Assembly (NCBI GenBank): GCA_937928765.1
Contig: CALFVX010000001.1
Location: forward strand, 16,246-80,245
Reading direction: 5' to 3'
Source: an uncultured Endomicrobiia bacterium
GTDB lineage: Bacteria; Elusimicrobiota; Endomicrobiia; DTEH01
DNA: 64,000 nt
The notes below the pieces were generated by a model. The model was not told the DNA's origin. It saw only the letters and a program-made list of their open reading frames with translations, and did no database searches. Made by a program: the position numbers and the translations under genes. This document shows, piece by piece, positions 17,017-64,000 of the stretch (the stretch's first letter is position 1; each line of letters begins with the position of its first letter).

Positions 17017-18135
17017 ATGAATAAAAAAATTTTGTTACTTACAGCAAGTTATGGCAGCGGTCATATCACCGCAACAAAATCTTTACAAGAAATGTTTAAA
17101 AAATTATATCCTGATACGGAAACAAAAGTTGTAGATTTTTTAGATATTAACAATACATCTTCAAAAGAAAAAAAATTAACTTTTTTTCAGAAATTATACA
17201 ATTTTTCAATGGAAAAACCAATTATTTTTGATATATTTTTTTATATTACTAATAATAAATTTTGTAGTTTTTTGTTGAGTAAAATGATTACATTTAGATA
17301 TTATAAAACAGTTGAAAAACTTTTTGATGAGTATAAACCAGATCTTATTATTTCCTCACATCCGTATTGGAATTTTTTGGTTAAAAAATATAAAAAGAAA
17401 AAAAATGTGCCATACATTTGTATAATTACAGATTCTTATATGATTCATAATGCATGGATAGAAAAATCAGTTGATTATTATTGTGTAATAGATGATGATT
17501 CAAAACATGTCTTGATAAATAAAGGGATGAGAAATATCGTAGTTACAGGTTTTCCAGTAAGTTATAAGTTGTTTGAAAGCATAGACAGAAATAAAATTCT
17601 TTCAGAATTAGGATTAAAGGAAAATAAATTAACTATTTTAATCACAATAGGTCTGGGCGCGTTAGAAAAGTTTTTAAAGATTATAGAATTTTTAAGAACA
17701 AAAAAAGAGGATTTTCAATTAATTATTATAACTGGAAAATATCAAAAAATATATGAAGAGTTAAAAAATAAAAACTTCATTCCACCAACTGTTATAATTG
17801 GATGGACAGATCGTATGTATGATTTTATTTGTGCAAGTGATTTAGTAATATGCAAAGGAGGCGGAGCTATTACATCTGAAGCATTATCTGCTAGATGTCC
17901 TATTTTCATTCCTCTATTTGTACCTGGGCAAGAAAGAGGAAATGTTTACATTATTAAAAAATATAAAATGGGTTTTTACGAAGAAAAATTAGAAAATGTG
18001 TTTTGTAATTTAGAGGAAATTATATCTAAAAATATTAATCTGCAAGAATATGTAAATAATATAAAATCTTATGTTAAGTATAACCCGGCAGAAAAAATAG
18101 TAAAATTTGCGTATAAGCTTATCTATAATTTATGA
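17017..18135 (+). CDS. MGDG-synthase-family glycosyltransferase (GT28-like, UgtP/MGDG synthase type)
   Basis: N-terminal LLLTASYGSGHITATKSLQEMF is the hallmark of the MGDG_synth domain. The C-terminal GT28 region includes CKGGGAITSEAL. Confidence 0.65.
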   Translation: MNKKILLLTASYGSGHITATKSLQEMFKKLYPDTETKVVDFLDINNTSSKEKKLTFFQKLYNFSMEKPIIFDIFFYITNNKFCSFLLSKMITFRYYKTVEKLFDEYKPDLIISSHPYWNFLVKKYKKKKNVPYICIITDSYMIHNAWIEKSVDYYCVIDDDSKHVLINKGMRNIVVTGFPVSYKLFESIDRNKILSELGLKENKLTILITIGLGALEKFLKIIEFLRTKKEDFQLIIITGKYQKIYEELKNKNFIPPTVIIGWTDRMYDFICASDLVICKGGGAITSEALSARCPIFIPLFVPGQERGNVYIIKKYKMGFYEEKLENVFCNLEEIISKNINLQEYVNNIKSYVKYNPAEKIVKFAYKLIYNL

Positions 18136-21100
18136 GAATAAAAGATTATTTTGAAAAAATTGTAATATTAAGAATTCTGTTTTTAGTTTCTAGATTTGTT
18201 ATAACAGCAGTTAATGTGATAATTGGATTCTTTGTATTAAGTATGTTAATAGATAAAATTTTACCGTTGCCTATTATAATTTTTCACATTTATTGGTTTA
18301 TTATTTTAGGAGTGATTTTTATATTTTTTATTAATCTTATCGTAAGAGTTGTAGAACTTAAAGTAAAACCTTATTATTATATTATGGAATCTATAAACAA
18401 ATATTTAAGGTTAGAAAATAAAGATGCTGTAATTAATGCTTTTTTATTAGAACAAAATTTAGTCTATGATAAAAATTTGAATTTTTCTTCTGAGTTAGCT
18501 AGCGAATTTATTAAAAATGTAAAAGAAAAATTGTTAGAAATAAAACCAAAAAAGATAGTTGAATTTGAAAAAATTTTTAAAGTCTTACCACTTAATTTTA
18601 TACTAATTTCTTTAGCTTTTATACTTTACATATACCCTCCATATGTAATCAAAGAAGGTGTATATAAAATTCTATTTACAAGAAATCCGGAAATACTAGG
18701 TATTTTTATTATGCCTAAAAATATAAAAATTCCCTATAAAGAAAGTTGTGAAATAAAAGTTATTATAGATAAAAATTATGAACTTTATATTCCGGCTTTA
18801 TTTGTAAAAACAAAAAATTTTGATAAGTTTGTGAGAGTAAATTTTGATTCTCAAGAAAATTTTTTAAATAGGAAAATATATAAATATAAAATAAATTCTA
18901 TAGAAGAAAAAATATTTTATAAAATAAAATTTCGTGGAGTAAAAACTAAAACTTTTGTTATAGATCCGATTCTATATCCTGAGATTTCTAAAATAAAAAT
19001 TTTTGTATCTCCTCCAGAATATACAGGAATAGAACCTTATGAAATAAATAGTTTTAATGCAACAAAATATTTTTATAACACTAACATAAAATTTACAGGT
19101 ACAACAAATAAAAAGGTAGAAAATGTAAATCTTTTGTTTAGCGATGGTGAGAAAATAATACTTTCATTAGATAAAAATAAAACAAATTTTTATGGAGAAT
19201 TTAAAATAACTAAAGACACAGAATTATGGTTTGAAATTACTGATACAGAAAATATGAACAACTTTGAAAAATTAAGATATAAAATAAATATTTTAGAAGA
19301 TAAATATCCTGAAATTAAACTTATTTCTCCTCAAGATGAAATTGTAGTTGAGCCTAATGTTAAAATACCACTAGTTTTTTCTTGTAGAGATGATATTTCT
19401 TTAAAAAAGGTTGAGTTGGTATATTATATTAACAACGATGTGAAAAATAAAATAAAAATTAAAGAATATCTTCAAAAAACAAAAGAAGATTTAGAAGAAT
19501 ATATTTTTGATCTAAGTAAATTAAAAGTTAATTTTGGAGATGTTATAAGTTATTATTTTATCGTATATGATAACAATCCTTATAAAAGTCAATATAATCT
19601 CTCTTCTGTACAAAAGATAGAAATTTTTAGCTATGAAAAACAACATAACAATATACAAAAACAAATAGAGGAATTTAATAAAAAATCTCTGGATTTACTT
19701 TCTAAAGAGATTGAATTAAAAGAATTTTTTTTAACCAAAACTACTACAACAGCAAATTTTAATGATGATTTACAAAAATTTATTATTTCTCATTTAAAAA
19801 CAAAAGAAGATTTTGATAATTTGGAAAAAATAATTTCTTCTATTGTAGAAAATATGTCAAAAGATCCATATACTTCGTTTGATACATATATAGAATTTAA
19901 AAATATAGAATCTTTAATTAAAGAGTTAAAAGAAGAAATTTTTCCAAAACTTTTAGATGAGTTAAGAGATAAAAATTTGTCTAAAGCAGAAGAATCTCAG
20001 CAACAAATTGTAGATAGTTTAGAAAGAATTACAGGATTATCTAATGAAATTGTTAAAAAACAAAATATGCATAATATAGCAGAAATTGCTAGAGATATAA
20101 AAAGTTTTAGTGAAGATATTTTCGAAATTTTGAAAAATTCAGATAAAAATATTTCTGAAGAAGAAAAAAATAAGATAAAAAATTTGCTTAAAGAAATTGA
20201 AGATAAATTAAAAAAAATAAATGATTTGATCAAAAATATGCCACAGGATTTGCCAATTGAGTTTGTTAACCAAAGAGATATACAAAATTTAGATTTATTT
20301 TCACCAACAGATTTAATACAAAAAATTGTCTCTGCTATAGAACAAAACAATCTTTCTTTGGCAACAATGTTAGCAAAAAATTTGTTGTCCCAGTTAGATT
20401 ATATAACTAAAAAGATTTCTCAGCCAAGCTATGAAATAGCTTTATCTGGGACATCATATTTAGATAAGGAGCTAAAGGAGTTGATTAGTAATTTGGATGA
20501 AATTATTTTTGAAGAAGATGAGATATATAAAAATACAAAAAAGATTGAAAACTATAGAATAACAGAAGTTTTAAAGCATCAAGAAGACAAAAAGGACATA
20601 ATAAAAAATCATATTGAGGAAATAAAAAATGAGATTAATAAAGTATTAAATACAGATGAATTTAATCAATTTGTAAATAAAAACATTTATAAACAAAATT
20701 CTTTAAAAGCTATAAATAATTTAAATGCGGTAATTTTAGAAACAGAAAAAAATATATTTTTAAAGACAGCACAATTAATAGAAGATAGCAAAAAAATATG
20801 GATGAATAACTTTGATTTAATTAATGATTTAGATATAGAAATATATAGAGTTTTAATAGAAAAAACAAAAATTGTAAAAGAAAAAATTGATGAATTACAT
20901 AAAATTGTAAATTTAGAACCGGAGATAAAATATAAAAGTGAAATATTAAAAAAAAATGAAGAGTTGATATATAAGCAAGAATTTGTAATTAATAAAACAA
21001 AAAATTTTAGAGAAAAATTAAAATCTTTAGGTAAAAAGAGCTTTATTATTTCTTACAAAGATATACTAATCACTAACCAGTCTATAAATTCAATGAATAA

Positions 21101-21440
21101 TTCAAAAGAATTTTTAGAAATAAAAAACTTTTCTTTGGCACTACAAGAACAAAATTCTGCAATAAATCTATTGTTAAAATTAAGGAATAAGTTTAATGAT
21201 AAAAAATCTATGATGCAACAAATATTAAATTCTATTGGTAAACCTATAGCGGAAAAATTGCAATATAAATCTTCTGCTGGTAAAATTGGTGTTATTGAAG
21301 GAAGAGTGTTGTTACCTTCTGTAAAAGATTATGAACCACCAAAAGAGTTAAGAGAAGAGATAATAAAGTCGTTAAGCGAAAAATATCCTAAAGAGTTAGA
21401 AAATATATTACAAAAATATTATCAAGAAATTTTAAGATGA
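18132..21440 (+). CDS. Large (1102 aa) membrane-anchored coiled-coil protein of unknown function
   Basis: N-terminal 3-4 TM helices followed by a long K/E/I/N-rich helical region. It is ATGA-coupled both upstream and downstream. Confidence 0.45.
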   Translation: MRIKDYFEKIVILRILFLVSRFVITAVNVIIGFFVLSMLIDKILPLPIIIFHIYWFIILGVIFIFFINLIVRVVELKVKPYYYIMESINKYLRLENKDAVINAFLLEQNLVYDKNLNFSSELASEFIKNVKEKLLEIKPKKIVEFEKIFKVLPLNFILISLAFILYIYPPYVIKEGVYKILFTRNPEILGIFIMPKNIKIPYKESCEIKVIIDKNYELYIPALFVKTKNFDKFVRVNFDSQENFLNRKIYKYKINSIEEKIFYKIKFRGVKTKTFVIDPILYPEISKIKIFVSPPEYTGIEPYEINSFNATKYFYNTNIKFTGTTNKKVENVNLLFSDGEKIILSLDKNKTNFYGEFKITKDTELWFEITDTENMNNFEKLRYKINILEDKYPEIKLISPQDEIVVEPNVKIPLVFSCRDDISLKKVELVYYINNDVKNKIKIKEYLQKTKEDLEEYIFDLSKLKVNFGDVISYYFIVYDNNPYKSQYNLSSVQKIEIFSYEKQHNNIQKQIEEFNKKSLDLLSKEIELKEFFLTKTTTTANFNDDLQKFIISHLKTKEDFDNLEKIISSIVENMSKDPYTSFDTYIEFKNIESLIKELKEEIFPKLLDELRDKNLSKAEESQQQIVDSLERITGLSNEIVKKQNMHNIAEIARDIKSFSEDIFEILKNSDKNISEEEKNKIKNLLKEIEDKLKKINDLIKNMPQDLPIEFVNQRDIQNLDLFSPTDLIQKIVSAIEQNNLSLATMLAKNLLSQLDYITKKISQPSYEIALSGTSYLDKELKELISNLDEIIFEEDEIYKNTKKIENYRITEVLKHQEDKKDIIKNHIEEIKNEINKVLNTDEFNQFVNKNIYKQNSLKAINNLNAVILETEKNIFLKTAQLIEDSKKIWMNNFDLINDLDIEIYRVLIEKTKIVKEKIDELHKIVNLEPEIKYKSEILKKNEELIYKQEFVINKTKNFREKLKSLGKKSFIISYKDILITNQSINSMNNSKEFLEIKNFSLALQEQNSAINLLLKLRNKFNDKKSMMQQILNSIGKPIAEKLQYKSSAGKIGVIEGRVLLPSVKDYEPPKELREEIIKSLSEKYPKELENILQKYYQEILR

Positions 21441-23023
21441 AAAAAAACATATATTTTGTGGCTTTAATTTTGTTAAACTCTATTTCTTTATTTTTAGCAG
21501 ATGTTAATCATCAAAATAGCAAGATAAATTTTATTTTAAATTATTTAGAAGCAGGCAATTTCAAACAAGCAGAAGAAATTATAAATACTGAGAGAGATTA
21601 TGATTTAAAAGGATATCTGTATAGTATATATCATTTATATAGCGGAGATAATGTTTTAGCCGAAGAATATGTTAAAAGAGTACAGAATAATTACAAAGAT
21701 GACTTCTTTTCTAATTATATTGTAAACATTAATAAAATTATAAACGATTATGAAGTTTATGAATCTCAACATTTTAAAGTTTTTCTTAAAGGTAAAGATA
21801 CTATACTAAAAGATTTTATTTTAGAAAAGTTAGAAAAAATTTATGAGATATATGGAAGGATATTTAATTATTATCCAGAAGATAAAGTTAGAGTAGAAGT
21901 TTATAATACAAAACAGGAATTCTATTTTGCTACAACTTTAAAAGAAGACTTAGTTAAAAATACAGGGGTAGTTGGTATTTGTAAGTTTAACAAAATTATG
22001 ATTATCTCACCAGAAAATTTGCCGTTAGGATACAGGTGGATTGACACATTAGCACATGAATACATACATTTTATTCTTAATAGAAAAACATCATATAAGT
22101 ATCCTTTATATCTACACGAAGCAACTGCAAGATATTTTGATACTATATATAGATCTTCTTTTGTGGTATGTTTTACAGCTGGTAATTTGAAATTATTAGT
22201 TGAAGCTAAAAAAAATAATAAACTTATAAATTTTGATGAGATGAAAGGATCTTTAATATATTTTGAGGATATAGATAAAATAGAATTAGCATTTGTAGAA
22301 CTTGCTAGTTTTGTAGAATTTTTAGTTAAAAATTTTGGTATTGAAAAATTTGTTAAATTTATAGAACAATATGATTCTCAGAATGAAAAAAAATTATATA
22401 AAGAAATTTTTGATAAAGATTATAAAGAGATCATATCTTTATGGATGCAAACAATAGATGAAAAAGAAGAATATATAAAACTATATCCTGGTGCTGTTTC
22501 AGATTTAAAAATTAAAACCGCAACAGATGAAAATAGTTTGATAGGCCTTGATTTAGAAAGTTATATTAGATTAGGAGATAAATTTTTAAGTTTGAATAAT
22601 TATAAATCTGCATTGTTTCAATATAATAAGGCAAAAGAGATTGAAGCCTATAATCCATTGGTTTTAAGTAGAATTGGGAAAATATATTTATTAACAAAAA
22701 AATATGATTTATGTGAGGAAGTATTAAAAGAATGTATATTGTCCAACCCAAATTTTGTTACTTCCTATGAGATTTTGTTAAAATGTTATTATGAAAAAGG
22801 TGATTATGAAAAAGTTTTAGAGATTTTTAATTCTGTTGTTGAGATTAATCCGTTTAATTATGAAATAAGAAAAATAGTTGCGGAAGTATATGCAAGTTTA
22901 GGTAAAATTAAAGAAGCATTGCAACAATATAAAATAGTAAAGATTTTACAACCAAATGATATAGAAATAGAAAATATTATTAATTCTTTAGAAGAATATT
23001 TAAAGATAAAATATAGAAGATGA
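21437..23023 (+). CDS. Putative secreted zinc metallopeptidase (HExxH) with C-terminal TPR repeats
   Basis: Signal peptide, HEYIH motif in the sequence DTLAHEYIHFIL, and a C-terminal TPR block. Confidence 0.45.
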   Translation: MKKNIYFVALILLNSISLFLADVNHQNSKINFILNYLEAGNFKQAEEIINTERDYDLKGYLYSIYHLYSGDNVLAEEYVKRVQNNYKDDFFSNYIVNINKIINDYEVYESQHFKVFLKGKDTILKDFILEKLEKIYEIYGRIFNYYPEDKVRVEVYNTKQEFYFATTLKEDLVKNTGVVGICKFNKIMIISPENLPLGYRWIDTLAHEYIHFILNRKTSYKYPLYLHEATARYFDTIYRSSFVVCFTAGNLKLLVEAKKNNKLINFDEMKGSLIYFEDIDKIELAFVELASFVEFLVKNFGIEKFVKFIEQYDSQNEKKLYKEIFDKDYKEIISLWMQTIDEKEEYIKLYPGAVSDLKIKTATDENSLIGLDLESYIRLGDKFLSLNNYKSALFQYNKAKEIEAYNPLVLSRIGKIYLLTKKYDLCEEVLKECILSNPNFVTSYEILLKCYYEKGDYEKVLEIFNSVVEINPFNYEIRKIVAEVYASLGKIKEALQQYKIVKILQPNDIEIENIINSLEEYLKIKYRR

Positions 23024-25937: not shown

Positions 25938-26399
25938 ATGAAAGTAGAAGAAAATTTTTTTGCTTTCAAAAAAACATTTTACAAAAATTTTACATACTCT
26001 TTCCTTACTTTACTTTTTAGTATAATACTTATAAAAAATCTTTTGTTATCAAATCATAACATACAAAACTTACCTAATAATGATTTAAAATTTAGCAAAA
26101 GCTCTTATAGCACTATAAATTTTTATTCTGAAGAAGGTATTATAGTTAATTTTCCTAATCCGTTTAGTAATTTCACTTATATTTATGTTAGATTGCCTAA
26201 AAAAGATGATTGTATAATAAAAATATACGATTTGTTTGGTAATTTGATTAAAGAATTTAATCTATCTGGCGAAGATAAATATATGTTGGTTTGGGATGGA
26301 AGAAATTTTAATTCTGAAAAGGTATCAAAAGGCGGATATATTTGTGTCTTACAATATAGTGGTAAAAAAATTATAAGAAAAATAGGTTATTTAAGATGA
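25938..26399 (+). CDS. Small membrane-anchored protein consisting essentially of a T9SS C-terminal sorting (CTD) / FlgD-Ig-like beta-sandwich domain
   Basis: FPNPFSNFTYIYVRL...CIIKIYDLFGNLIKEFNL...WDGRNFNSEKVSKGGYICVLQYSGKKIIRKIGYL matches the Por_Secre_tail / FlgD_ig consensus. There is no cargo domain. Confidence 0.55.
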   Translation: MKVEENFFAFKKTFYKNFTYSFLTLLFSIILIKNLLLSNHNIQNLPNNDLKFSKSSYSTINFYSEEGIIVNFPNPFSNFTYIYVRLPKKDDCIIKIYDLFGNLIKEFNLSGEDKYMLVWDGRNFNSEKVSKGGYICVLQYSGKKIIRKIGYLR

Positions 26400-28014: not shown

Positions 28015-29922
28015 ATGTTTATGAATATATTGAAAACAAATATAAATTTTTATATAAAAAATTATATGTTAAAACATATAAGCAAAGTTTTAATCCTAAT
28101 TATTCTTGCCACATTTCTACACCCACAACAAACAATTCAACAACTTTCTGCAGATCAACAGATAACTCCGGCAATGTTGCTTGAATATGAAACCAAGTTG
28201 GAACAGCAAAGGACAGAATATGTACAAAAAAATATTCTTGATAAAATTTTTGGCCCCAATAGATCTACAGTAATGATAGATATTACTTTAGGATTAAAGA
28301 CAACTACTACAAGACAACAGGCTTCTGCAAAAAAGCTTGATGCAAAAAGAAAATTAGGAGATACAGAATATTTACTACCCGGTATACCAAAACCTGGTTC
28401 TATTGCAGAGTCAGCTGTTCCAGCAGAAGCAAAAGGTGAGGCATCTGGTACTGAAATTATCGGAGTAAATACAGAGATAGTTATACAAAAGCAGAGTATT
28501 ACTGTAATATATGATGAAAAAATCAAAGATAATAAAGTAGAAATGGTTAGAGATGCTATTGCAGCAGCATTAGATATAAGAAAAAAAGAAACAATAGTAT
28601 TTAAGAAAGCAAAGTTTACTACGAATGTTTTGGAAAAATTTTTTGAAAATATTTTGTTACCAAAATATCTTATACCTTTGATAATAACTTTATTGTTATT
28701 AATGTTTTTGTTTGGTCCCATAGCAGATTTTTTAAGAAATTATATAAGAATGTTAAGAGAAAGATCACCCACAGAAATTTCTATAGACTCTAAACTTGCC
28801 AAAGAAGGAGAGTCGCCAACTGAAGGATTAACAGGAGCAGCTGGTGCAAGTGGAGTAGGAGGTGTATCTACAGGGTTGACAGAGGAAGAATTACAAGAAA
28901 AAGAAAAAATTAAAAAAGAAGAAAAATATATACCATTTAGTTATATAGATGACAGTAATATAAAGAGGTTAACATACTTAATAGCAAAAGAGAAACCAGA
29001 AGATATAGCTATTGTGCTTAGCTATTTAAAACCAGAGTATGTTAAACAAGTAATTGAAAGTTTTAAACCACATTTGCAAGCAGAGGTAGCAGTTGCTTTA
29101 GCTCAAGCAAGAGAAATACCGCAAGAAGATATTGTTCGTATGGATAACTATGTAAAAGAAAGAATTGATTTTTTGGTTGGAGGTATGCATCATCTTATAG
29201 AGTTATTACAGAAAGTAGATAAAACTACCCGAGATAATATATTAGAGTATCTTAAAAATGAAAAACCAGATATATATCAAAAAGTTCGTCCACAAATATT
29301 TTTGTTTGAAGATATTATTGATATTCCTGATATAACTTTACAAACTATTATTCGTGAATTAAAACCAGAAAATATTGCTCGTGCTTTAAGAAATGCTCCT
29401 AAAGAATTAGTTGATAAATTTTTTAAAAATATGTCAGAAGGAGCACAGGCACTTGTGAGAGAAGAAATTGACTATGGAAGGCCAATGACAAAAGAACAAA
29501 TTGAAGAAGAACAGAATAAAATTGTAGAATTAATTAAAAGAATGGAACAAGAAGGAAAAATTTATATTAAAGAAAGAGGAAAAACTTTTTTAATTGATGC
29601 AAGCGAAATTGTTTCAGAAACACAAAGAAATAAAAAAACAAATATAGAAGAATCTTTAGGATATGAGTATTATATTCAAGGTATAGATTTTTATCAACAA
29701 GGTGATTTTGAAAATGCAGTAACATATTTACAATATGCAACAGAATTAGATCCACAATTAAAAGAAGCATATCAATATCTTGGAAATATTTATTATGAAT
29801 CAGGGCAATATCAAGAAGCATTGAATTATTACAAAAAAGTTATAGAGATTAATCCAGAAGATAAAGAGTTTGCTTTATGGGTTGAAGAATTTGAAAAATC
29901 ATTATCAGTATCATCAATGTAA
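28015..29922 (+). CDS. Two-TM membrane protein with periplasmic segment, cytoplasmic FliG-like (middle plus C-terminal torque-helix) domain and C-terminal TPR repeats
   Basis: IAIVLSYLKPEYVKQVIESFKPHLQAEVAVALAQ compares with FliG IALILSYLDPDQAA..L..E.L..EV..RIA. FEDIIDIPDITLQTIIRELKPENIARALRNAPKELVDKFFKNMSEGAQALVREEIDYGRPM...EEEQNKIVELIKRMEQEGKIYI compares with FliG FEDIVNLDDRSIQRVLREVD...ALKGA..ELREKF..NMSKRAAEMLREDLE..GPV...VE.AQ..I...RRL...GEIVI. Confidence 0.6.
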   Translation: MFMNILKTNINFYIKNYMLKHISKVLILIILATFLHPQQTIQQLSADQQITPAMLLEYETKLEQQRTEYVQKNILDKIFGPNRSTVMIDITLGLKTTTTRQQASAKKLDAKRKLGDTEYLLPGIPKPGSIAESAVPAEAKGEASGTEIIGVNTEIVIQKQSITVIYDEKIKDNKVEMVRDAIAAALDIRKKETIVFKKAKFTTNVLEKFFENILLPKYLIPLIITLLLLMFLFGPIADFLRNYIRMLRERSPTEISIDSKLAKEGESPTEGLTGAAGASGVGGVSTGLTEEELQEKEKIKKEEKYIPFSYIDDSNIKRLTYLIAKEKPEDIAIVLSYLKPEYVKQVIESFKPHLQAEVAVALAQAREIPQEDIVRMDNYVKERIDFLVGGMHHLIELLQKVDKTTRDNILEYLKNEKPDIYQKVRPQIFLFEDIIDIPDITLQTIIRELKPENIARALRNAPKELVDKFFKNMSEGAQALVREEIDYGRPMTKEQIEEEQNKIVELIKRMEQEGKIYIKERGKTFLIDASEIVSETQRNKKTNIEESLGYEYYIQGIDFYQQGDFENAVTYLQYATELDPQLKEAYQYLGNIYYESGQYQEALNYYKKVIEINPEDKEFALWVEEFEKSLSVSSM

Positions 29923-55430: not shown

Positions 55431-55898
55431 ATGAAAAAATTATTAATTATTTCAGTTTTCACAGGTTTTTTCATAGCATTATTTATAACAGAAAGTAATT
55501 ATTTATCTCACCAAAATTTTGAATTGATAAATTCCAATTTTGTTTCTTTAAATCTTTTTGATACAAGAGATTTTTCTAATACCCAGTATCATCAAAACAA
55601 TCTTTTGAAACAATTGTTTGTAGAAAAAATTTATCTAAATTTTGTATTAGAAGAGCTTGAGAGTTTTAAATCTATAACTGTTTTATTACTTAAAAAATTT
55701 GTTAATTTTTGGTTCATTACTGAAACATTCAAAATTTTGTTAGAAAAAGTAGTTTATTTGTTTACAGAGATAAGAAAACTTTTTATTTTTAACTGCATAG
55801 TTTTGTTTAATTTAGTACTTCCTATTTTTATTTTCCTTTTCTATTTTAAAACACAACATAAAACTTTTAAACTACCTAATATAGTTTTAAGATGTTGA
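55431..55898 (+). CDS. Hypothetical membrane protein
   Basis: 155-aa ORF with N- and C-terminal hydrophobic segments, sitting downstream of the strong promoter. No recognisable family. Confidence 0.3.
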   Translation: MKKLLIISVFTGFFIALFITESNYLSHQNFELINSNFVSLNLFDTRDFSNTQYHQNNLLKQLFVEKIYLNFVLEELESFKSITVLLLKKFVNFWFITETFKILLEKVVYLFTEIRKLFIFNCIVLFNLVLPIFIFLFYFKTQHKTFKLPNIVLRC

Positions 55899-56270: not shown

Positions 56271-56438
56271 ATGAATAGCATTACTGAAAAAGAAAAGCAG
56301 GCATTAAAAGAGTTAGTTGAAGCTCTTAAGAAACTTTATGGTAACAATTTAGTTCGTGTGATACTTTATGGTTCAAAAGCGTGGATAGATAAAAGAGAAT
56401 GATTGATAAAGGAGGTATGGATAAAAATGAGTAGATTG
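56271..56438 (+). pseudogene. Truncated 5' duplicate of the MNT-type nucleotidyltransferase antitoxin gene (56874..57203)
   Basis: A ~90-nt stretch (about 56292-56381) is about 98% identical to 56895-56984. It encodes MNSITEKEKQALKELVEALKKLYGNNLVRVILYGSKA and then diverges into an early stop, losing the GSxxxGD...DIDI catalytic motif. Confidence 0.55.
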
Positions 56439-56621
56439 GTTATAAAACCAGAATTTGTGGTTGACAGGAAAGGGAACAAAAAAGCAGTTATTATTAGTTA
56501 CAAAGAATATCAGGAGTTGTTAGAAGATCTTGAAGATTTGAAAGACATTGCAGCAAGAGAGAAAGAGCAATCACGACTTTTTTCTGACTATCACAAGGAA
56601 CGGATATCAAAGAGAAAATGA
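56403..56621 (+). CDS. Type II antitoxin, Phd/YefM (or RelB)-like
   Basis: 72 aa, ...KKAVIISYKEYQELLEDLEDLKDIAAREKE, overlapping the downstream RelE/ParE toxin by 4 bp. Confidence 0.6.
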   Translation: MIKEVWIKMSRLVIKPEFVVDRKGNKKAVIISYKEYQELLEDLEDLKDIAAREKEQSRLFSDYHKERISKRK

Positions 56622-56869
56622 AATATATTACAAAGATAAAACGTTCAGCAGAAAAAGAGTTAGACAAAATTCCTTTAAAAGTTTATAGACAGATTGCAAA
56701 ACATATATTTGCGTTAGGGACTAATCCGCGACCTTCGGGGATAAAAAAACTAAAAGAAGGAATTTATCGGATACGAGTTGGAGATTATCGGATAGTATAT
56801 TCTATAGATGATACAACTAAAATAGTAGAAATTATAAAAGTTAAGCACAGGAAAGAAGTTTATAGATAA
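56618..56869 (+). CDS. Type II toxin, RelE/ParE family
   Basis: 83 aa, ...GIKKLKEGIYRIRVGDYRIVYSIDDTTKIVEIIKVKHRKE, the typical RelE/ParE C-terminus. Confidence 0.7.
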   Translation: MKYITKIKRSAEKELDKIPLKVYRQIAKHIFALGTNPRPSGIKKLKEGIYRIRVGDYRIVYSIDDTTKIVEIIKVKHRKEVYR

Positions 56870-56873
56870 TAAA

Positions 56874-57203
56874 ATGGACCACTTGACAGAGAAAGAAAAG
56901 CAGGCATTAAAAGAGTTAATTGAAGCTCTTAAGAAACTTTATGGTAACAATTTAGTTCGTGTTATACTTTATGGTTCAAAAGCGCGTGGTGATGCTACAA
57001 AAGATTCAGATATTGATATTATGGTCGTGTTGAAAAATTATGAAGATTGGAATGAAGAATTTGATAAAGTATTTGATATTGTCTATCCAATAAATTATGA
57101 GTACAACATGCTTATATCTGTGGTTATAAAAAAAGAGGAAGAATACCTGACTAAAAAAACTCCCTTGCTATTAAATGTTAGAAAGGAAGGAGTAGAGATA
57201 TGA
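56874..57203 (+). CDS. Minimal nucleotidyltransferase (MNT) antitoxin of HEPN/MNT module
   Basis: LYGSKARGDATKDSDIDIMVV matches the Pol-beta NTase GS...D.D motif. Confidence 0.75.
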   Translation: MDHLTEKEKQALKELIEALKKLYGNNLVRVILYGSKARGDATKDSDIDIMVVLKNYEDWNEEFDKVFDIVYPINYEYNMLISVVIKKEEEYLTKKTPLLLNVRKEGVEI

Positions 57204-57490
57204 AAAACGAAATTAGTGCACTTATTAAAAAAGCAGAAGCAATACTTCTTACTAAAGATTTATCTTACTCAACGCACAAAGGTGTAATTGCTGGTTTTAG
57301 TGAACATTTCATCAAAAATGGGACATTTGATAAGAAATTTGGAAGAGAACTTAACAAAGTTTACGAATTAAGAGTGAATGGCGATTATGAAGCACAAGAT
57401 AAAATATCAAAACAGCAAGCTGAGACATATTTGAACTTAGCAAAAGAATTTCTACAAGCAGCAAAGAAATATTTGGAGAAGTTTAAATAA
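57200..57490 (+). CDS. HEPN domain protein (toxin partner of MNT)
   Basis: 96 aa, helical, overlapping the MNT gene by 4 bp. It is the canonical MNT-HEPN arrangement. Confidence 0.6.
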   Translation: MKNEISALIKKAEAILLTKDLSYSTHKGVIAGFSEHFIKNGTFDKKFGRELNKVYELRVNGDYEAQDKISKQQAETYLNLAKEFLQAAKKYLEKFK

Positions 57491-58161
57491 TGAAAAAATA
57501 TCTTAGTCAACATTTTTTTGTGTTTGTGTTAATTTTTATTCCAATTTTTGTTTTCTGTGATGAAAGAGAGGATATAAGAAAGTATGTTTCTTCTTTAAAA
57601 TCTTCTGATGCTAAGGTACGTCTTGCTGCGATAGAGTCGTTAAGTAGGATACAAAACAATCCTGAAGTTGTAGATATTTTAGTTGATGCGTTCAAACAAG
57701 AGCAAGATAATTATCTTAAGATCCAAATTTTAGAAGTGCTTGCTATCCAAAAGTCAACTAAATCGTTGGAATGTATTTATTCTGCATTAGATGATACTAA
57801 TCCTTATGTTCGTCAGCAGGCAGTGATATCACTTGGGTATTATAATGACGAAGAGAAAGTGGCGAATATACTTTCAGATATTTTTGATAAAGAAGAGAAA
57901 GAGTTTGTGAAACTGACAATTGTTAATACAGTTGGTAATATGACTAACAGAGTTGCGATTCCTGTATTATCAAAAGCGTTAAATGAGAAAAATAGTAAAC
58001 AACTGCGTTTTCTTGCAATAGAAAGGCTACACAATATAGGCAATACAGAGGCACTAATAGAGTTAGAAAAATACAAAAATGATAAAGATTTGGAAATAAA
58101 GCAAAGGATAAACAAGATAATATCAGAGAAAAGGAAGAAAATTGAAATAAAGAAAAAATGA
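57490..58161 (+). CDS. HEAT/PBS-lyase-type repeat protein with signal peptide (lipoprotein-like Cys)
   Basis: Repeats of the form VRLAAIESLSRIQN...PEVVDILVDAFKQE / VRQQAVISLGYYND. Confidence 0.6.
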   Translation: MKKYLSQHFFVFVLIFIPIFVFCDEREDIRKYVSSLKSSDAKVRLAAIESLSRIQNNPEVVDILVDAFKQEQDNYLKIQILEVLAIQKSTKSLECIYSALDDTNPYVRQQAVISLGYYNDEEKVANILSDIFDKEEKEFVKLTIVNTVGNMTNRVAIPVLSKALNEKNSKQLRFLAIERLHNIGNTEALIELEKYKNDKDLEIKQRINKIISEKRKKIEIKKK

Positions 58162-61100
58162 GTAAAACCAAACAATATAAAAATTTTTGGCTGGAAATTA
58201 TATATGTTACTATTTTTTTGGTTTTGATTGTTAGTAATTTATATGCTACAAAGTCAAATTCGCATGTTGCGTTTAATCTTACTCAAACTGCACCTATGGT
58301 TAAGGAGTGGTTAGCTTCTACTGGTGAGTGGTCGGATTTTCAACTTGCTCAGGAAGTTGTTGGCACAGAGGGAATAATATATGCTGCTAAACTTATCTCT
58401 GCGCCATCTGATGGTCCAAGACCTAATGAAAAAATACTGATTGTAATGCTATTTGACAATGTTGGGAATGTAGGTAGAATTTTAGCTCAGGTTTATGATG
58501 GCACATCTTGGGGTAATCCACAGATATTACAAACATTTATTGATACTGGTCTTATAGCACCTCTATACAGATTTCCGTTTGATGCTGCTTATGAAACGGC
58601 AACAAGTACTGCAATAGTAGTTTTTACAAATGGCGATAATAATGATACAACAACAACTGCATGGGCAACCTGGGATGGAACTCAATGGATATTAAGAGGC
58701 GATATGCCTGTTCAGACAAATACAAACGCCCAATATGTCTACTGGATAAGGTTAGAAGCAAACCCGAGAGCAGGTTCTCGTGAGATATTTGCTGTTTTTG
58801 CTGATGCAAGTCTTGAGTTATATGCCGTGAGGTGGAATGGAACAAGCTGGGGTAATTCTCAAAACATAACTAACGGCACTCTAATGGGGAATGCTTTGGA
58901 AAATATTGCTTCTTACAGAAGTTTTGATATAGCATTTTCGTCAAGAACCAGTACTTTTTATATATTCGGTGCTATTGGTAGGGTATTTGAAGTTGCATAT
59001 TGGACTGGTAGTGCTTGGGCTGCTGGAACTGATAGTGTAGTTGTAGATGCTCATAATTCAACTTGGCGCTGGTGTATTGCAAAGCCAGATATTTCAGGTA
59101 ATTCAGATAGAATAGCAGTTTTTGCCCAACAGGGGACTATAAGAGCAGCATTAGGGATATTTAATGGTGGCGGTGCAGGCTCATGGTCTAATACATGGAA
59201 CACTAATAATTTTCCTAACGCTAACATTTCTGCTGGATATAGGCCAACTATAGGACTTGAATGGTTAGCAGATGGTTCACAAATAGTTCTTTCTTATTCT
59301 CAATCGGGTATTACTAATCCAAGATATAGAATACTTACATTGCCTAATACCTTAGGTGCTGAGGGTAGTGCGAACAATGTAGGCGGTTCACAGATATATC
59401 AGGTAAAAGTTTTCAGGGAGAGTGGGTCAAACAATATTATGCTTTTTACTGTTAACGACCTTGGAAGACTTACTTCGCAGCGATGGAATGGTTCTTACTG
59501 GGAGCCGGTTCAGATGGTGAATCCGTATGGAAGTTATGCTACTAATCAATTTTTTGATTTTAACGATAATATGGTTGCTTATGGTGGTAACGATCCAAGA
59601 CCTGCTTACAGGAATTGGGCTGCAGATGTTCAAACCTGGTCAGGGACAAATTCTTTTGCTATTGATATAGGTGCAAGTCCAAGGTTTGTAAGGTTTAAGG
59701 CAAGTCCAAAGAGAAATGAGAAGATACTTGTTACACAGGATAATCTTGGTCAGATAATTTCTCAGATATGGAATGGGACTACATTTGTATCAACTCAAAC
59801 ATTGACAACAGCAATAGATGCTGTAGGTGGTAAAGATTTCCGTAGAGGGTTTGATTTTGATTTTGAAAGGAAAACTGGCGATGCGTTGATAGTTTATTCA
59901 AACAATACAACAGTTCCGCAGTATAGGGTTAAAGCAGATGGTTCACTTACCTGGAGTGACCCTGTTGGTATATCAGGTTGGCCAGGGACAGGAACACCTT
60001 TATGGATAAGGTTAGAAGCAAACCCGAATCCTGATTCTGAAGAGATGATACTTGTTGTAATGGATACGAATTATGATTTATTTGCTGCTGTATGGAATGG
60101 CACTGGATGGACAAATATAATTACTCTTACGCTTAATATCGCCGGGTTAATTGAATATACACAGAACTTTGATGTTGCGTATACTTATGAACCATACTAT
60201 ATGGGTTTAGTTGTATGGGGAGATAATGCTAACCAACAGACTCCTTATTATAGAATATGGTATTCAACTTCACAAACCTGGGGTGGGACAAGAGTAGGAC
60301 TTGACCTTGACCCTAATACTAATACTGATTTAGCAAGATGGATGAAACTTAGTTCTGACAGGTCAGAGATAGGAATTTCATATGGTGGTAGGATAGCGTT
60401 GGCAGTTGCAGACGGTGATGCAGACCTTACTGCTATGATATTTTACGGCAATACACAAAGTTGGGGTGATCAATTAGTAAATGCAGAAACAGAGTTACTT
60501 GACCCGGATGCAAGCTCAGTTTATGACTTTCGAACTTTTGATATCTGTTGGGAAGGTGCTGGTGGTGATTTAATTCTTGCATATAGTGATGGTAATACCA
60601 ACTTAAGACACAGGGTTTTTAGGACTGGTGTTGGCTGGGGTCCTGAGGTTGTTAACGATACTGCTGGAAATGCTGCTATACGGCATGTGACTTTGGTTGC
60701 TGACCCTAATGACCCGAATACTAATGAACTTTTTGCAGTTGTTATAAATGCTAACGGTCAGCTCAGGATTTATCACTGGTCAAATCCTGCTGCACAAAAC
60801 GGTACTTTTGATACTCCTTTCCAGCCGAAGATATATAATGGTTTTTATTGGCAAAATACTTTCCGAACAGAACCGTTTGCTTTATGTTATGACAGAGATT
60901 ACACTCCACCTGTGGCTTATTTATCATTTCCGCAAGATGGTGGACATTACAAATATCTTAATGTAATAAGTGGTACTGCGACAGATGGTAGTGGTTATAA
61001 TGTATCAGAACTTAAAAGGGTTCAAATAGCTATACAGGATTTAACTTATCCATCAACTTATTACAGGTTAGGTGTAGGTTGGGTAGCAAGTGGTTCATTA

Positions 61101-64000
61101 ATCTGGAATGACGCTACTGGTGTAAACCCGTGGGATACAAGTGGTTGGGGCAATATTGATAGTATATGGACAAGTGGTCGTAGGTATAGAATATATGTTC
61201 GTGCGATAGACTGGGCTGATAATAGGCAGACAAGTTTAACTACTGCAGAGATAGTTTATGATAAGACAAATCCGACTGGTGCGGTTTTATATCCAAAAGA
61301 TATTTCAACACCGTCAAATCAAAGTTATATAAAAATTGATTATACTCAACCGTTGATTACAATCAGTGGGACTGCTTTTGATACTGACCCTGGTAGGATA
61401 CAGAAAGCAGTTATAAGATTACAATGTGCTGGTTCGCCTACAAAACAAAACCAGTGGTGGAACTGGACAACTGAACAATGGCAGACGGATTATTCAGATA
61501 AAGAAATTACACCGCCAGGTAATCAGTTCTCGTGGAACTGGTCAGTGACAATTACTACAAGAGCGTTTTCCGAAGACCAGACAACTTATTATATTTCAGT
61601 TCAAGTTCAGGATAAAGCAGGCAACTGGCAACCAATAGCATCAACTAATACTTTTGTGATAGACAACACTCCGCCACAAAGTGTAGTTATCTGGCCTGAT
61701 GTTAACTCAGGCCAGTTTTCGCCAATAACACTAATTTCTGGAACTTGTAGTGATACTTTTAATGTATTTTCTGCTTCTATTGCTATAAGGAAGAGCGATT
61801 CTTATTGGGACGGCAGCGGGTTTAATTCTCCAACACCTGTATGGTTTAATGTTAATGGAACTTTGAATTGGACATATCCAGCAGTTGAAAATTTGGATAA
61901 TACTGAATATAGGATTTACACTCGTGCGATGGACTATGCTGGGAATGTAGAATCAGTGAACTTAAATGTTGCAAAACGGAATTATATTATTGATGTTACA
62001 TCGCCAACTACAGTTGTTACTGTGCCACAGAACAACCAATGGTATAGTTCATTAACTCAAATTCAAGGAACTGCGAGGGATGGTCCTGAAGTTGGCTCTA
62101 TTCAAAAACTTAACTTTGTACAGATAGCAATAAGACGACTTTCAGATGGTATGTATTGGAACTGGCCTGGTTGGAGTGCAGCAACTCCGCAATGGGATTA
62201 TCAATCCTCACCACCAACACCTATAAGTGTTTCTTATACTAACTGGACAAAGAATTTTAGTGATTCCAACTGGGGTACAGTTTCAGGTTCTTCGTTTACT
62301 GTTTGGGCAAAAGCAACTGATTTAACTAAACCTACAAACTTAGTTGAACAGGTAAACCCGCCAACAGGTGGGAACACTTTCTTTTGGGATGTAACACCAC
62401 CTACTTCAACTATTACATATCCACAACATTTAGGTGTTGCAGGTACTAACCCTGTATTTTACGGTACTTACTATGATGCTCATTCAGGTATAGGACCTGC
62501 AGTAGGTGGAACAGTCAAGATAAAACTCTATGCAAAGACAGGTGTGAATGCAGGAAAGTGGTATTATGCAGGTGACTGGAGGTCAACACCGCCAACTAAC
62601 GATGACCTACCTTCAGCAGAGATTTGGCCTTCAAGTTGGAGTTGGCAAGCACCAACACTTGAAAGTGGTGCTGAATATCTTTTGGTTTCAATAGCAAAAG
62701 ATAGAGCAATTCCTGGAAATTATCAAACAGAGTTTATAGTAGGTATATCTTCAAATTCTTTCACTTGTGATAACACTGAACCTGACACAAATATAACTGT
62801 TCCTGCAACAAGTTTTAGAAATCAACTTACACAAATACAAGGTAATGCTTCTGATGCACCGCAAGCATCACAGGTTAACCGTATAGAGATAGAGATTGTT
62901 TATCCGGTTGAAGAGGATGGTACAGGTTCACCAACACATGCGTGGAATGGTACTAACTGGGTGGCTTATACAGGTTCATTTGCTACATATGTTGTAGTTA
63001 TGGGCGGGTATCCAACCTGGACATATAATGTACCTTCAAATATAAACTGGCAACAAGGAATAAGGTATAGAATAACTGCTCGTGCAGTTGATAATGTTGG
63101 TAATGTTGAGACATCGCTTACTATTGGTGATGAAATACGAGTTTTTAAATATGATGTATCTTTTCCTACTTCAACACCTACACGTTGCACAGAAGATGGT
63201 CAAATTAAGTATTTTTCTAATGAGACATATTTCCATAACTTAACCAAGATAGAAGGGACTGCACAGGATTATCCTGAAGCACCATATGGTGAACTTGCTG
63301 CAGTAGGTGTGTATATAGAAAAGATAGACAATCCTGGCGCTGGATACTTCTGGGACCAGGCAAACGGTAGATGGCGAAACGATTTAGGTCCTATAAGAAA
63401 CAATGCTACTTTAACTGCTTATGGTTGGGAGTTTGATACTTCAGGTATTAACTGGGCTACGGGACAAAATGGTGGTTATGGACCTTATTGGTCAAACGGT
63501 GGTACTTTCAGGATAAGGTCGGAAGCAAGAGATTCTGCAGTACCTGGTAATGCACCACCGCCTGCAGGAAACCGTGAGAAAGGTGGTGTATATGCAAACC
63601 TAAACTATGTAGATATAGTTTTTGATCCAAGGCCACCTGATTCTAAAATAACTAATATTCCAGCAAATGGTTATACTAACAGTTTACCAACAATTTCAGG
63701 GACTGCTTCTGATATAGATACTGCTGTTAGTTATACTCCTGTAATTGATAGTGTTAGGATAAACATATTTAAACAAAGTCCGCCACCTGCAAAAACTTAT
63801 AATGGTTCTACTTGGGAGGACGGTGAACTTTTAGATGATGCTTACTGGTTAAGTTGTAATTTTGTAGGTTATTCCTCAGGGACATGGACATATCCATCAC
63901 CTGCTTGGGAACATGGTGCAACTTATAGGATTATAAGTAAAGCAAAAGATAAAGCAAAAAATTATCAATTAGTTTTAGATACAAGAACATTTATTTTTGA
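58158..64000 (+). CDS. Giant secreted repeat protein (>1940 aa; 3' end beyond window), with an N-terminal beta-propeller-like region and C-terminal tandem Ig-like ~100-aa repeats
   Basis: I translated the frame from the ATG at 58158, which overlaps the HEAT gene stop (ATGA), to the window end and saw no in-frame stop. It starts with signal/TM MSKTKQYKNFWLEIIYVTIFLVLIVSNLYA. Internal repeats include WIRLEANP (twice, 25-nt DNA identity) and a recurring TxPT..V..P........I.GTA.D....V..V.I.I module. It is absent from the ORF track because it lacks a stop codon within the window. Confidence 0.65.
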   Translation, partial: MSKTKQYKNFWLEIIYVTIFLVLIVSNLYATKSNSHVAFNLTQTAPMVKEWLASTGEWSDFQLAQEVVGTEGIIYAAKLISAPSDGPRPNEKILIVMLFDNVGNVGRILAQVYDGTSWGNPQILQTFIDTGLIAPLYRFPFDAAYETATSTAIVVFTNGDNNDTTTTAWATWDGTQWILRGDMPVQTNTNAQYVYWIRLEANPRAGSREIFAVFADASLELYAVRWNGTSWGNSQNITNGTLMGNALENIASYRSFDIAFSSRTSTFYIFGAIGRVFEVAYWTGSAWAAGTDSVVVDAHNSTWRWCIAKPDISGNSDRIAVFAQQGTIRAALGIFNGGGAGSWSNTWNTNNFPNANISAGYRPTIGLEWLADGSQIVLSYSQSGITNPRYRILTLPNTLGAEGSANNVGGSQIYQVKVFRESGSNNIMLFTVNDLGRLTSQRWNGSYWEPVQMVNPYGSYATNQFFDFNDNMVAYGGNDPRPAYRNWAADVQTWSGTNSFAIDIGASPRFVRFKASPKRNEKILVTQDNLGQIISQIWNGTTFVSTQTLTTAIDAVGGKDFRRGFDFDFERKTGDALIVYSNNTTVPQYRVKADGSLTWSDPVGISGWPGTGTPLWIRLEANPNPDSEEMILVVMDTNYDLFAAVWNGTGWTNIITLTLNIAGLIEYTQNFDVAYTYEPYYMGLVVWGDNANQQTPYYRIWYSTSQTWGGTRVGLDLDPNTNTDLARWMKLSSDRSEIGISYGGRIALAVADGDADLTAMIFYGNTQSWGDQLVNAETELLDPDASSVYDFRTFDICWEGAGGDLILAYSDGNTNLRHRVFRTGVGWGPEVVNDTAGNAAIRHVTLVADPNDPNTNELFAVVINANGQLRIYHWSNPAAQNGTFDTPFQPKIYNGFYWQNTFRTEPFALCYDRDYTPPVAYLSFPQDGGHYKYLNVISGTATDGSGYNVSELKRVQIAIQDLTYPSTYYRLGVGWVASGSLIWNDATGVNPWDTSGWGNIDSIWTSGRRYRIYVRAIDWADNRQTSLTTAEIVYDKTNPTGAVLYPKDISTPSNQSYIKIDYTQPLITISGTAFDTDPGRIQKAVIRLQCAGSPTKQNQWWNWTTEQWQTDYSDKEITPPGNQFSWNWSVTITTRAFSEDQTTYYISVQVQDKAGNWQPIASTNTFVIDNTPPQSVVIWPDVNSGQFSPITLISGTCSDTFNVFSASIAIRKSDSYWDGSGFNSPTPVWFNVNGTLNWTYPAVENLDNTEYRIYTRAMDYAGNVESVNLNVAKRNYIIDVTSPTTVVTVPQNNQWYSSLTQIQGTARDGPEVGSIQKLNFVQIAIRRLSDGMYWNWPGWSAATPQWDYQSSPPTPISVSYTNWTKNFSDSNWGTVSGSSFTVWAKATDLTKPTNLVEQVNPPTGGNTFFWDVTPPTSTITYPQHLGVAGTNPVFYGTYYDAHSGIGPAVGGTVKIKLYAKTGVNAGKWYYAGDWRSTPPTNDDLPSAEIWPSSWSWQAPTLESGAEYLLVSIAKDRAIPGNYQTEFIVGISSNSFTCDNTEPDTNITVPATSFRNQLTQIQGNASDAPQASQVNRIEIEIVYPVEEDGTGSPTHAWNGTNWVAYTGSFATYVVVMGGYPTWTYNVPSNINWQQGIRYRITARAVDNVGNVETSLTIGDEIRVFKYDVSFPTSTPTRCTEDGQIKYFSNETYFHNLTKIEGTAQDYPEAPYGELAAVGVYIEKIDNPGAGYFWDQANGRWRNDLGPIRNNATLTAYGWEFDTSGINWATGQNGGYGPYWSNGGTFRIRSEARDSAVPGNAPPPAGNREKGGVYANLNYVDIVFDPRPPDSKITNIPANGYTNSLPTISGTASDIDTAVSYTPVIDSVRINIFKQSPPPAKTYNGSTWEDGELLDDAYWLSCNFVGYSSGTWTYPSPAWEHGATYRIISKAKDKAKNYQLVLDTRTFIF

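Follow-up and report, generated by a model that had tools for sequence, protein, structure and literature searches.

Giant repetitive surface proteins are thought to be a means by which many small uncultured bacteria touch their hosts or prey, and the parts of these proteins are mostly unannotated. Here, we analysed a locus at the end of a 64,000-nucleotide (nt) stretch of DNA (the window; contig CALFVX010000001.1 of assembly GCA_937928765.1, positions 16,246 to 80,245) from an uncultured bacterium of the Endomicrobiia, a diderm lineage of the Elusimicrobiota (PMC11257099). An earlier note, made by a model from the letters alone, had proposed that a giant secreted repeat protein, of a kind typical of adhesins or of S-layer and other cell-surface giants, is encoded there in a long open reading frame (ORF) next to the gene of a HEAT-repeat protein, a reading that we found to be essentially right. 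The giant, as we call it, begins with a predicted signal peptide, continues with two tandem beta-propellers and then changes to an array of immunoglobulin (Ig)-like modules. The locus is composed as follows (aa, amino acids; E-values were obtained with profile hidden Markov models, HMMs):

57490..58161, forward strand: gene of the exported HEAT-repeat partner, 223 aa (HEAT_2, E = 1.9e-23; signal sequence ending in Cys23)
58158..64000, forward strand: giant ORF, 1,947 codons, ATG start, open at the window end
58158..58250, forward strand: signal peptide, aa 1-31 (predicted signal peptidase I (SPase I) site after LYA and before TKSNSH; hydrophobic segment aa 7-32)
58260..59588, forward strand: propeller 1, aa ~35-477, four double-blade units of ~105 aa (matches of the unit HMM)
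59607..60809, forward strand: propeller 2, aa 484-884, four units, probably 8-bladed
60891..61259, forward strand: Ig-like module 1, aa 912-1034 (E = 1e-30; AlphaFold2 model with a predicted local distance difference test score (pLDDT) of 91.9, beta-sandwich)
61260..61661, forward strand: Ig-like module 2, aa 1035-1168 (E = 1.5e-23; by alignment)
61662..61985, forward strand: Ig-like module 3, aa 1169-1276 (E = 1.1e-25; by alignment)
61986..62387, forward strand: Ig-like module 4, aa 1277-1410 (E = 4.4e-29; by alignment)
62388..62768, forward strand: Ig-like module 5, aa 1411-1537 (E = 1.9e-21; by alignment)
62769..63146, forward strand: Ig-like module 6, aa 1538-1663 (E = 1.6e-29; by alignment)
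63147..63617, forward strand: Ig-like module 7, aa 1664-1820, longest module of the eight, carrying insertions (E = 1.5e-21; by alignment)
63618..63998, forward strand: Ig-like module 8, aa 1821-1947 (E = 1.3e-32; the array runs on past the window)

Translation of the giant's frame yielded no stop codon over 1,947 codons, as had been claimed, while no ORF above 74 aa was present in the other frames across 58158-64000, so that the length of the frame is far beyond chance. Its absence from the ORF lists, which the earlier note had remarked upon, is explained by a reading frame that runs past the window end. The ATG of the giant and the TGA of the HEAT gene share the four letters ATGA, in agreement with the described overlap. 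Three further public assemblies (L001, L002 and L003) carry the same gene, collinear with the window at 99.66%, 98.6% and 99.95% identity, respectively, and the frame is open in all of them. Extension of the contig, which had been proposed as a check, was achieved in part: L001 lengthens the giant to 2,256 aa, but no stop and hence no 3' end was reached. Since the longest DNA repeat in the gene measures only 30 nt (64-73% identity), misassembly by repeat collapse is unlikely, and neither of the two faults named in advance as fatal, an overlooked in-frame stop or a chimeric assembly, came to light in the four assemblies. The protein shows the announced richness in tryptophan (4.1%), glycine (8.4%), threonine (9.8%), asparagine (7.7%) and tyrosine (5.3%), and the motif WIRLEANP indeed recurs, at aa 196 and aa 616.

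The N-terminal signal or membrane segment noted before corresponds to the only hydrophobic segment of the giant (aa 7-32). In the window giant and in five orthologues from other genomes, we found an h-region, a small-x-Ala motif and then a conserved mature start, [ST]xSEA..[FY]N.TQT.P, a pattern that reads as an ordinary Sec/SPase I signal. The mature part is acidic (215 Asp and Glu versus 146 Lys and Arg). A prepilin motif (G-1, F/M+1, E+5) was found neither in the window giant nor in the five orthologues, and prepilin identity was rejected as the motif is missing in all of them; a Glu lies within the hydrophobic segment of the window giant (FWLEII) and is not conserved among the orthologues. 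Genes for export by a type I secretion system (T1SS; ABC transporter, membrane fusion protein) were not found in the 58 kb upstream of the giant, and GGxGxD repeats are absent from the 2,256 aa available from L001, beyond which the C-terminus lies. Given a Sec signal and no repeats-in-toxin (RTX) motifs over these 2,256 aa, identity as an RTX/T1SS adhesin was likewise rejected.

Comparison of the giant with itself revealed two repeat regimes. The first, aa ~35-884, consists of eight units of ~100-110 aa in two sets of four, and the first half of this head is homologous to the second, which is offset from it by ~430 aa (33% identity, E = 4e-14). In propeller 1, a profile of the unit, derived from cleaner relatives, matched aa 54-166, 169-270, 279-371 and 394-477 with E-values from 6e-11 to 1.6e-3. 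The unit consensus, YRxWNGxxW...W[IV]RLxAxPxxxE...D...Q[IV]WNGxxW...FD[IV]AYExxSGxA, reads as two alternating four-stranded blades, and each propeller of four such double-blade units is probably 8-bladed. The head has the general make-up of a beta-propeller, a circular array of four-stranded antiparallel blades; the AlphaFold2 model of propeller 1 was of low confidence, as the alignment covered mainly one copy, and the propeller nature of this half thus rests on its homology to propeller 2. The proposal of a propeller-like or sialidase-like region in the first ~900 aa was therefore borne out in its first part, whereas a sialidase/BNR identity was rejected: the Asp-box S-x-D-x-G-x-T-W, in strict or relaxed form, had no match in 2,256 aa. 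Known propeller families (WD40, RCC1, Kelch, FG-GAP, NHL, BNR) gave no Pfam or NCBIfam match in the window giant, FG-GAP motifs were not found in it, and the sole match to a known propeller family occurred in a relative (P0004; Beta-prop_EML, 29.5 bits against a cutoff of 88.2). A sequence search of the PDB with the giant gave no match, and NCBIfam returned only an OmpL47-type fragment below threshold.

The second regime is the module array. An iterated HMM identified eight complete tandem modules at aa 912-1947 of the window giant, in line with the earlier count of at least eight, although they are longer than the ~100 aa then given (108-157 aa, mean ~129). L001 holds ten and part of an eleventh. 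The previously described signature TxPT...I.GTA.D was recovered within the consensus DxTxP...ISGTAxD...YWxG..W...W...YxI..A.DxAGN, which has a typical length of ~125 aa and in which P7, G28, D32, W83, Y98, D106 and N110 are conserved in at least 85% of 67 modules. As the window modules are only 23-34% identical to one another, the array is old. One module was modelled with the other seven serving as its alignment (pLDDT 91.9, predicted template modelling score 0.86); the model has seven to eight strands and is a beta-sandwich of the Ig-like/E-set fold, for which two sheets with about seven strands in total are characteristic. Foldseek matched it to BT4663 (probably to its Y_Y_Y domain) and to PKD, FN3, PPAD and adhesin Ig-like domains at TM scores of 0.5-0.6. 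When the module profile was compared with solved structures, the best match was 2yn3 (weak, E = 1e-3), which we take to be the BIg domains of the Salmonella giant adhesin SiiE, followed by cadherins, all aligned on Y-x-I...D-x-AGN. The invariant Asp and Asn residues at the module ends (DxTxP, GTAxD, DxAGN) would, by analogy, probably form Ca2+-stabilised joints of the cadherin or SiiE kind. The domain-profile search suggested in the earlier note returned a single Pfam family for the giant, Big_13 (PF19077), which at 17.5 bits stayed below the cutoff of 27 bits, while a member of the same subfamily (P0071) reached 47 bits. Judged by sequence, the modules are divergent relatives of Big_13, with which they share the Ig-like beta-sandwich and from which they differ in length and in a tryptophan-rich insertion (a model of 102 positions compared to ~125 aa).

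The HEAT partner matched HEAT_2 with 83 bits against a cutoff of 27.7 and has a hydrophobic segment at aa 3-27. A word-index homology search with this protein matched only itself, and its orthologues were thus found by synteny with the giant. Together with the window, five other loci (L004, L005, L010, L011 and L012) encode a double-propeller giant, and in all six a HEAT protein of 187-239 aa is located directly upstream, across genomes of ~24-68% GC content (GC); the partners in the five other loci also pass the HEAT_2 threshold. The distance from the HEAT gene end to the giant start ranges from the 4-nt overlap to ~390 nt, with a 72-aa ORF in between in L010. The earlier note had called the partner a HEAT-repeat lipoprotein, of which the HEAT part holds. 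Of the five N-termini that could be read, four have a Cys where the h-region ends (window, FVF-C; L004, GFV-C; L005, ALC-C; L010, ALP-C), L011 has AIA|Q and no Cys, and a canonical lipobox [LVI][ASTVI][GAS]C is present in none. Export of the partner can safely be predicted from these sequences, while lipidation is possible and not established.

Orthologues of the giant that are collinear with it share 53-55% identity. The one in L004, which a scan of genome contigs located in a metagenome-assembled genome of an uncultured Elusimicrobia bacterium, is 55% identical and open over at least 5,994 aa with at least 40 modules. The closest match at the protein level (P0001) turned out to be the first 786 aa of the frameshifted, ~3,100-aa orthologue in L005, a gene that stops right after its 17th module. 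Even the distant members P0052, P0055 and P0056 are 37-60% identical over the whole head and consist of two propellers followed by modules. In L005, the orthologue is split at 12294-12361 into 786 aa and 2,340 aa, and in L012 at 12884-12946 into 1,627 aa and 4,628 aa, the last ~200 aa of the first piece looking out-of-frame. These splits are either sequencing errors in long genes or due to phase variation or decay. L005 (GCA_017880035.1) additionally contains, in the stretch 20033-22361, a second HEAT_2 gene, followed by a gene for a protein of 14,254 aa with a signal peptide and with neither propeller units nor Ig-like modules in its first 504 aa; the pairing of a HEAT gene with a following giant may hence be more general.

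Within the window, a 153-aa protein (25938-26399) carries a C-terminal sorting domain of the type IX secretion system (T9SS) type (PF18962, Por_Secre_tail, 27.3 bits against a cutoff of 27; CHU_C matched more weakly), which hints at T9SS-like sorting in this Endomicrobiia bacterium. The host may thus use such a route, and the giant might bear such a tag at its C-terminus, too. No T9SS sorting domain is found at the end of the L005 orthologue, which counts against this idea.

Strains differ in the giant in an unusual manner. Compared to L002, 29 of the first 1,109 codons differ, 24 of them non-synonymously, with a ratio of non-synonymous to synonymous substitution rates (dN/dS, Nei-Gojobori) of 1.86; compared to L001, 22 of 1,947 codons differ, 17 of them non-synonymously (dN/dS 1.15). 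Neutrality is not significantly exceeded (p = 0.11), but the pattern departs widely from what ordinary purifying selection produces. The HEAT gene of L002 is 100% identical to that of the window. Variable codons form clusters at aa 246-252, 274-275, 295-296, 444-447, 692-696, 715-725 and 853-881, a degree of clustering reached by none of 20,000 permutations (p < 5e-5), and in the confidently modelled propeller 16 of the 18 variable codons lie outside strands (p = 0.007). On this model, the patches look like exposed recognition loops, for which such variation is typical. The clustered changes could alternatively be small recombination imports or stem from a mixed-strain consensus. We rejected a diversity-generating retroelement as the source of the patches: the substitutions show no adenine specificity and spread across ~700 aa, and the window encodes no reverse transcriptase.

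An exhaustive HMMER search extended the propeller repeat family, for which no Pfam model exists, to 873 representative clusters. Its combination with this module type is rare (8 of 197 representatives examined). In relatives of ~560 aa from Saccharimonadales, members of the candidate phyla radiation (CPR), the repeat is placed on a type IV pilin N-terminus (GFSxVE), and these proteins were named PilV by the Joint Genome Institute (JGI). The archaeal P0004 has a class III signal and is encoded in a type IV filament locus with KaiC-like ATPases, Che genes, T2SSE and T2SSF; a cluster mate of P0002 is from a Woesearchaeota archaeon. P0181 joins one propeller to Ig-like domains and a T9SS type A sorting domain (TIGR04183 / PF18962; 24.1 bits against a cutoff of 23). 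The presence of the repeat on pilins, in a filament locus and on T9SS cargo indicates a surface-display module, with display outside the cell as the shared theme. P0189 combines one propeller with Big_5/Big_13 domains and an MtrC/MtrF-like multihaem cytochrome, which suggests a further use of the propeller, the targeting of extracellular electron-transfer proteins to a surface. Other relatives are built differently: P0054 (L013, 8001-28160) has 6,719 aa with about ten propellers (37 units) spaced ~580 aa apart and no Ig-like modules, and the gene upstream of it encodes a 178-aa protein that is not a HEAT protein, while P0057 (7,926 aa), in which 22 stretches match the query, may resemble P0054. 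A scan of viral contigs revealed no relatives of the propeller family, and a phage origin was rejected on these grounds.

Upstream, the HEAT gene and the giant adjoin two toxin-antitoxin pairs:

56283..56381, forward strand: truncated duplicate of the 5' end of the MNT gene (99-nt match, 96-97% identity to 56886-56984), intergenic and upstream of the toxin-antitoxin genes
56403..56621, forward strand: RelB/Phd-type antitoxin (RelB-like E = 2.4e-7, PhdYeFM_antitox E = 4.2e-7), first gene of the packed block
56618..56869, forward strand: ParE-type toxin (ParE_toxin E = 8e-14), 4-nt overlap with the antitoxin gene
56874..57203, forward strand: MNT-type nucleotidyltransferase, antitoxin of the MNT/HEPN pair (NTP_transf_2 E = 1.1e-12)
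57200..57490, forward strand: HEPN-domain toxin (HEPN E = 1.8e-8), strain-variable

The six genes from the RelB-like antitoxin to the giant are tightly packed with overlapping stops and starts, and both pairs (RelB-like/ParE_toxin and NTP_transf_2/HEPN) are type II toxin-antitoxin systems with all domains above threshold. In L002 (1-373), the N-terminal half of the HEPN protein is replaced by unrelated sequence, whereas its C-terminal 60 aa are 77% identical. The giant gene has 39% GC compared to ~25% in its neighbours. Recoding its amino acids with the codon usage of the neighbours predicts 36%, so that the jump mostly reflects amino-acid composition, and we rejected it as simple proof of transfer; only the excess in GC at third codon positions (GC3) is a real codon-usage signal. 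This excess over expectation amounts to +0.066 for the giant, +0.108 for the HEAT gene and +0.05 to +0.17 for the four toxin-antitoxin genes (+0.17 for the RelB-like gene), while 39 background genes deviate by 0.002 +/- 0.018 with a maximum of 0.042. The block 56403-64000 thus stands apart in its choice of synonymous codons, as expected of an acquired island, which suggests such an origin. Its GC resembles that of typical Endomicrobiaceae, for which 32-38% were reported (PMC11257099), whereas the window has only ~21-29% GC (GC3 0.11-0.18). The host probably belongs to an Endomicrobiia lineage that is strongly reduced or unusual. Its place in this class is borne out by the argininosuccinate lyase in the window, which is closest to proteins from metagenome-assembled genomes of Endomicrobiia; every named match with at least 57% identity (up to 89%) is from Endomicrobiia/Endomicrobia.

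A literature search found no description of the propeller repeat family, the module type or the HEAT-then-giant gene pair, and we compared the giant with systems of similar build. Like the giant non-fimbrial adhesins of Gram-negative bacteria (SiiE of Salmonella, the LapA/MpIBP class), it is exported and consists mostly of tandem bacterial Ig-like domains; it has the motif Y-x-I...D-x-AGN in common with the SiiE type, whose Asp and Asn suggest Ca2+-stiffened joints, and both would reach outward to bind a target. Adhesins of the SiiE/LapA class, however, lack a Sec signal, leave the cell by type I export via a C-terminal RTX or secretion signal and have their binding domains near the C-terminus, whereas the giant has an N-terminal Sec signal and an N-terminal globular head, with neither GGxGxD repeats in the 2,256 aa nor T1SS genes nearby. 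The second likeness is to propeller-tipped pili. In the Saccharibacterium Nanosynbacter lyticus TM7x, PilX2 is a minor pilin with a propeller resembling PLL lectins, the deletion of which halves host binding (PMC11623550). As in PilX2 and in PilY1 of Pseudomonas, the recognition domain of the giant would be a beta-propeller displayed off the cell, similar to PLL-type lectins in fold searches. Display would be achieved by an Ig-like stalk and a Sec signal instead of type IV pili and, in the case of PilX2, a pilin helix. PilX2 has been described as 7-bladed with RCC1 repeats, whereas the repeat of the giant has no RCC1 match and looks 8-bladed; PilX2 serves here as an experimental analogue. The PLL/PHL/BP39L beta-propeller lectins also count among the closest known systems, the PLL type being characterised by a 7-bladed propeller with fucose-binding sites between the blades. 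The giant works like the SiiE/LapA-class adhesins and like the PilX2/PilY1 propeller-tipped pili, yet belongs to neither group.

A survey of huge proteins counts Elusimicrobia among the phyla that are prone to them (PMC11573180). The giants of Omnitrophota and other uncultured phyla resemble ours in that they are very long, exported and from small-celled, possibly host-associated bacteria, with HEAT repeats recurring. Those of Omnitrophota have internal HEAT repeats, many enzyme domains and a preceding gene set resembling type II secretion systems and type IV pili (T2SS/T4P; West-Roberts et al. 2023, bioRxiv 10.1101/2023.11.21.568195), while at our locus the HEAT protein is separate and small, the giant is built of only two types of domain, and secretion genes are not found next to it. 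The integrin alpha ectodomain and the periplasmic sensor BT4663 (two propellers plus an Ig-like domain) show a likeness in architecture only, as the giant has no FG-GAP motifs, no visible transmembrane or kinase part and 10 to more than 40 stalk domains rather than one to three.

What might such a protein do for its producer? We consider it likely, without regarding the matter as settled, that the giant is a Sec-exported fibrillar surface adhesin, in which a distal double-propeller recognition head is carried by an Ig-like stalk and to which the HEAT partner encoded upstream belongs. The ORF, its architecture, the two folds, the synteny, the distribution of the family, the shift in codon usage and the patchy variation between strains are observed, whereas surface location in this organism, the distal position of the head, adhesion, Ca2+ joints and the function of the HEAT protein are inferred. 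Both proteins would be exported by Sec, and the two tandem propellers at the N-terminus of the mature giant would form the head. With ~4 nm per Ig domain, the length of the bead-like stalk would come to at least 40 nm in this giant and to more than 150 nm in that of L004. Held at the far end of the stalk, the head may bind a glycan or protein ligand on another cell or surface, while the C-terminal end of the giant would hold the fibre to the cell. The HEAT protein, coupled to the giant in translation via the ATGA overlap, would most plausibly serve as its dedicated extracytoplasmic chaperone, dock or anchor. The block of toxin-antitoxin, HEAT and giant genes behaves like an island that was acquired and differs between strains. 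Should the head be a recognition domain, its strain-variable loop patches would mark the likely binding face and thereby point to the attachment target of this Endomicrobiia lineage, which is unusually AT-rich for its class.

We weighed this adhesin against other explanations. An artefact, be it a chimeric repeat assembly or a pseudogene on its way out, is scarcely credible to us; apparent frameshifts do split two orthologues and dN/dS between strains is near or above 1, but the four assemblies are collinear with the frame open in each, repetition is lacking at the DNA level, the architecture is kept at 37-60% identity over genomes from 24 to 68% GC, and strain variation is concentrated in loops instead of being evenly spread. 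A role as structural envelope protein (S-layer, sheath or matrix scaffold) in place of a specific adhesin appears unlikely. Large size, export and a repetitive beta-structure with an acidic mature part would suit such a protein, and the distinct codon usage could reflect expression level rather than transfer. However, orthologues vary widely in length (17 to more than 40 modules), head variation is strain-specific and focused on loops, the head domain occurs on pilins and T9SS cargo in other lineages, and a variable island rich in toxin-antitoxin genes is a more fitting place for an accessory recognition protein than for a core lattice protein.

The pilin relatives raise another thought, namely that the giant is a type IV filament component, displayed where a pilus or pseudopilus begins or ends (base or tip), and exits via a T2SS/T4P-type machine. 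Propeller relatives with type IV pilin or class III signal N-termini, one of them in a T2SSE/T2SSF filament locus, the Omnitrophota giant genes reported to adjoin T2SS/T4P-like systems (bioRxiv 10.1101/2023.11.21.568195) and the Glu in the hydrophobic segment point in this direction. We nevertheless hold it to be improbable: all six orthologues, the window giant included, have an ordinary h-region and small-x-Ala in place of G-1/F+1/E+5, the Glu is unconserved, and T2SS/T4P genes are found neither in the 58 kb upstream nor beside the orthologues. Very unlikely, in our view, is a catalytic or substrate-capturing head (glycoside hydrolase, lyase or sialidase-like), which would turn the giant into a tethered polysaccharide-processing enzyme. 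Fold matches do include propeller glycoside hydrolases, rhamnose-glucuronate lyase and the P. gingivalis sialidase, yet among many others, and one relative (P0038) joins the propeller repeat to CBM9 and GH115_C. Against it stand the missing Asp-boxes, the lack of any enzyme-family match in Pfam or NCBIfam and the nature of the invariant residues: W, G, Y and P, of aromatic or structural type, recur in every unit, a pattern of scaffolds and not of a single active site.

The adhesin reading can be taken one step further, to a point that we regard as doubtful: HEAT protein and Sec-dependent giant might be a hitherto unrecognised two-gene system for building and anchoring very long surface fibres in diderms without a known outer-membrane translocator, and its head might belong to an ancient cross-domain cell-recognition module shared with the pili of episymbiotic CPR bacteria and DPANN archaea. 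If this were true, this unusually AT-rich lineage of Endomicrobiia would attach to, or prey on, other cells. The locus defines an unmodelled propeller family, a divergent Ig-like stalk module and a strictly conserved small exported HEAT partner, and the HEAT protein and the giant offer a concrete two-protein system open to testing.

Besides housekeeping genes, the 58 kb further upstream contain a Bat-like/VWA/TPR cluster and two coiled-coil giants. Secretion or pilus machinery was not found there. A promoter and terminator scan gave no more matches than chance. Between the DUF1015 gene and the island, just before the change in composition, lies a 155-aa, very hydrophobic ORF (55431-55898; rich in L, F and I) without family match. 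A protein with FliG_M, FliG_C and TPR domains (28015-29922) is followed by the two coiled-coil giants, which extend to 37983, are rich in E, K and L, comprise 1,602 and 1,065 aa, have no Pfam match and show a GC at second codon positions of 0.12-0.15. The phylum was reported to be entirely without flagella (PMC11257099), and these genes may represent a FliG-derived cytoskeletal or other non-flagellar system. A same-strand cluster at 7104-23023 encodes DUF58, BatA/VWA, DUF4159 and GATase1-like proteins, two TMEM260-like/TPR proteins, a glycosyltransferase resembling monogalactosyldiacylglycerol (MGDG) synthase, a 1,102-aa membrane protein (DUF4175, weak) and a TPR/peptidase-MA protein, and resembles Bat-type aerotolerance or envelope operons.

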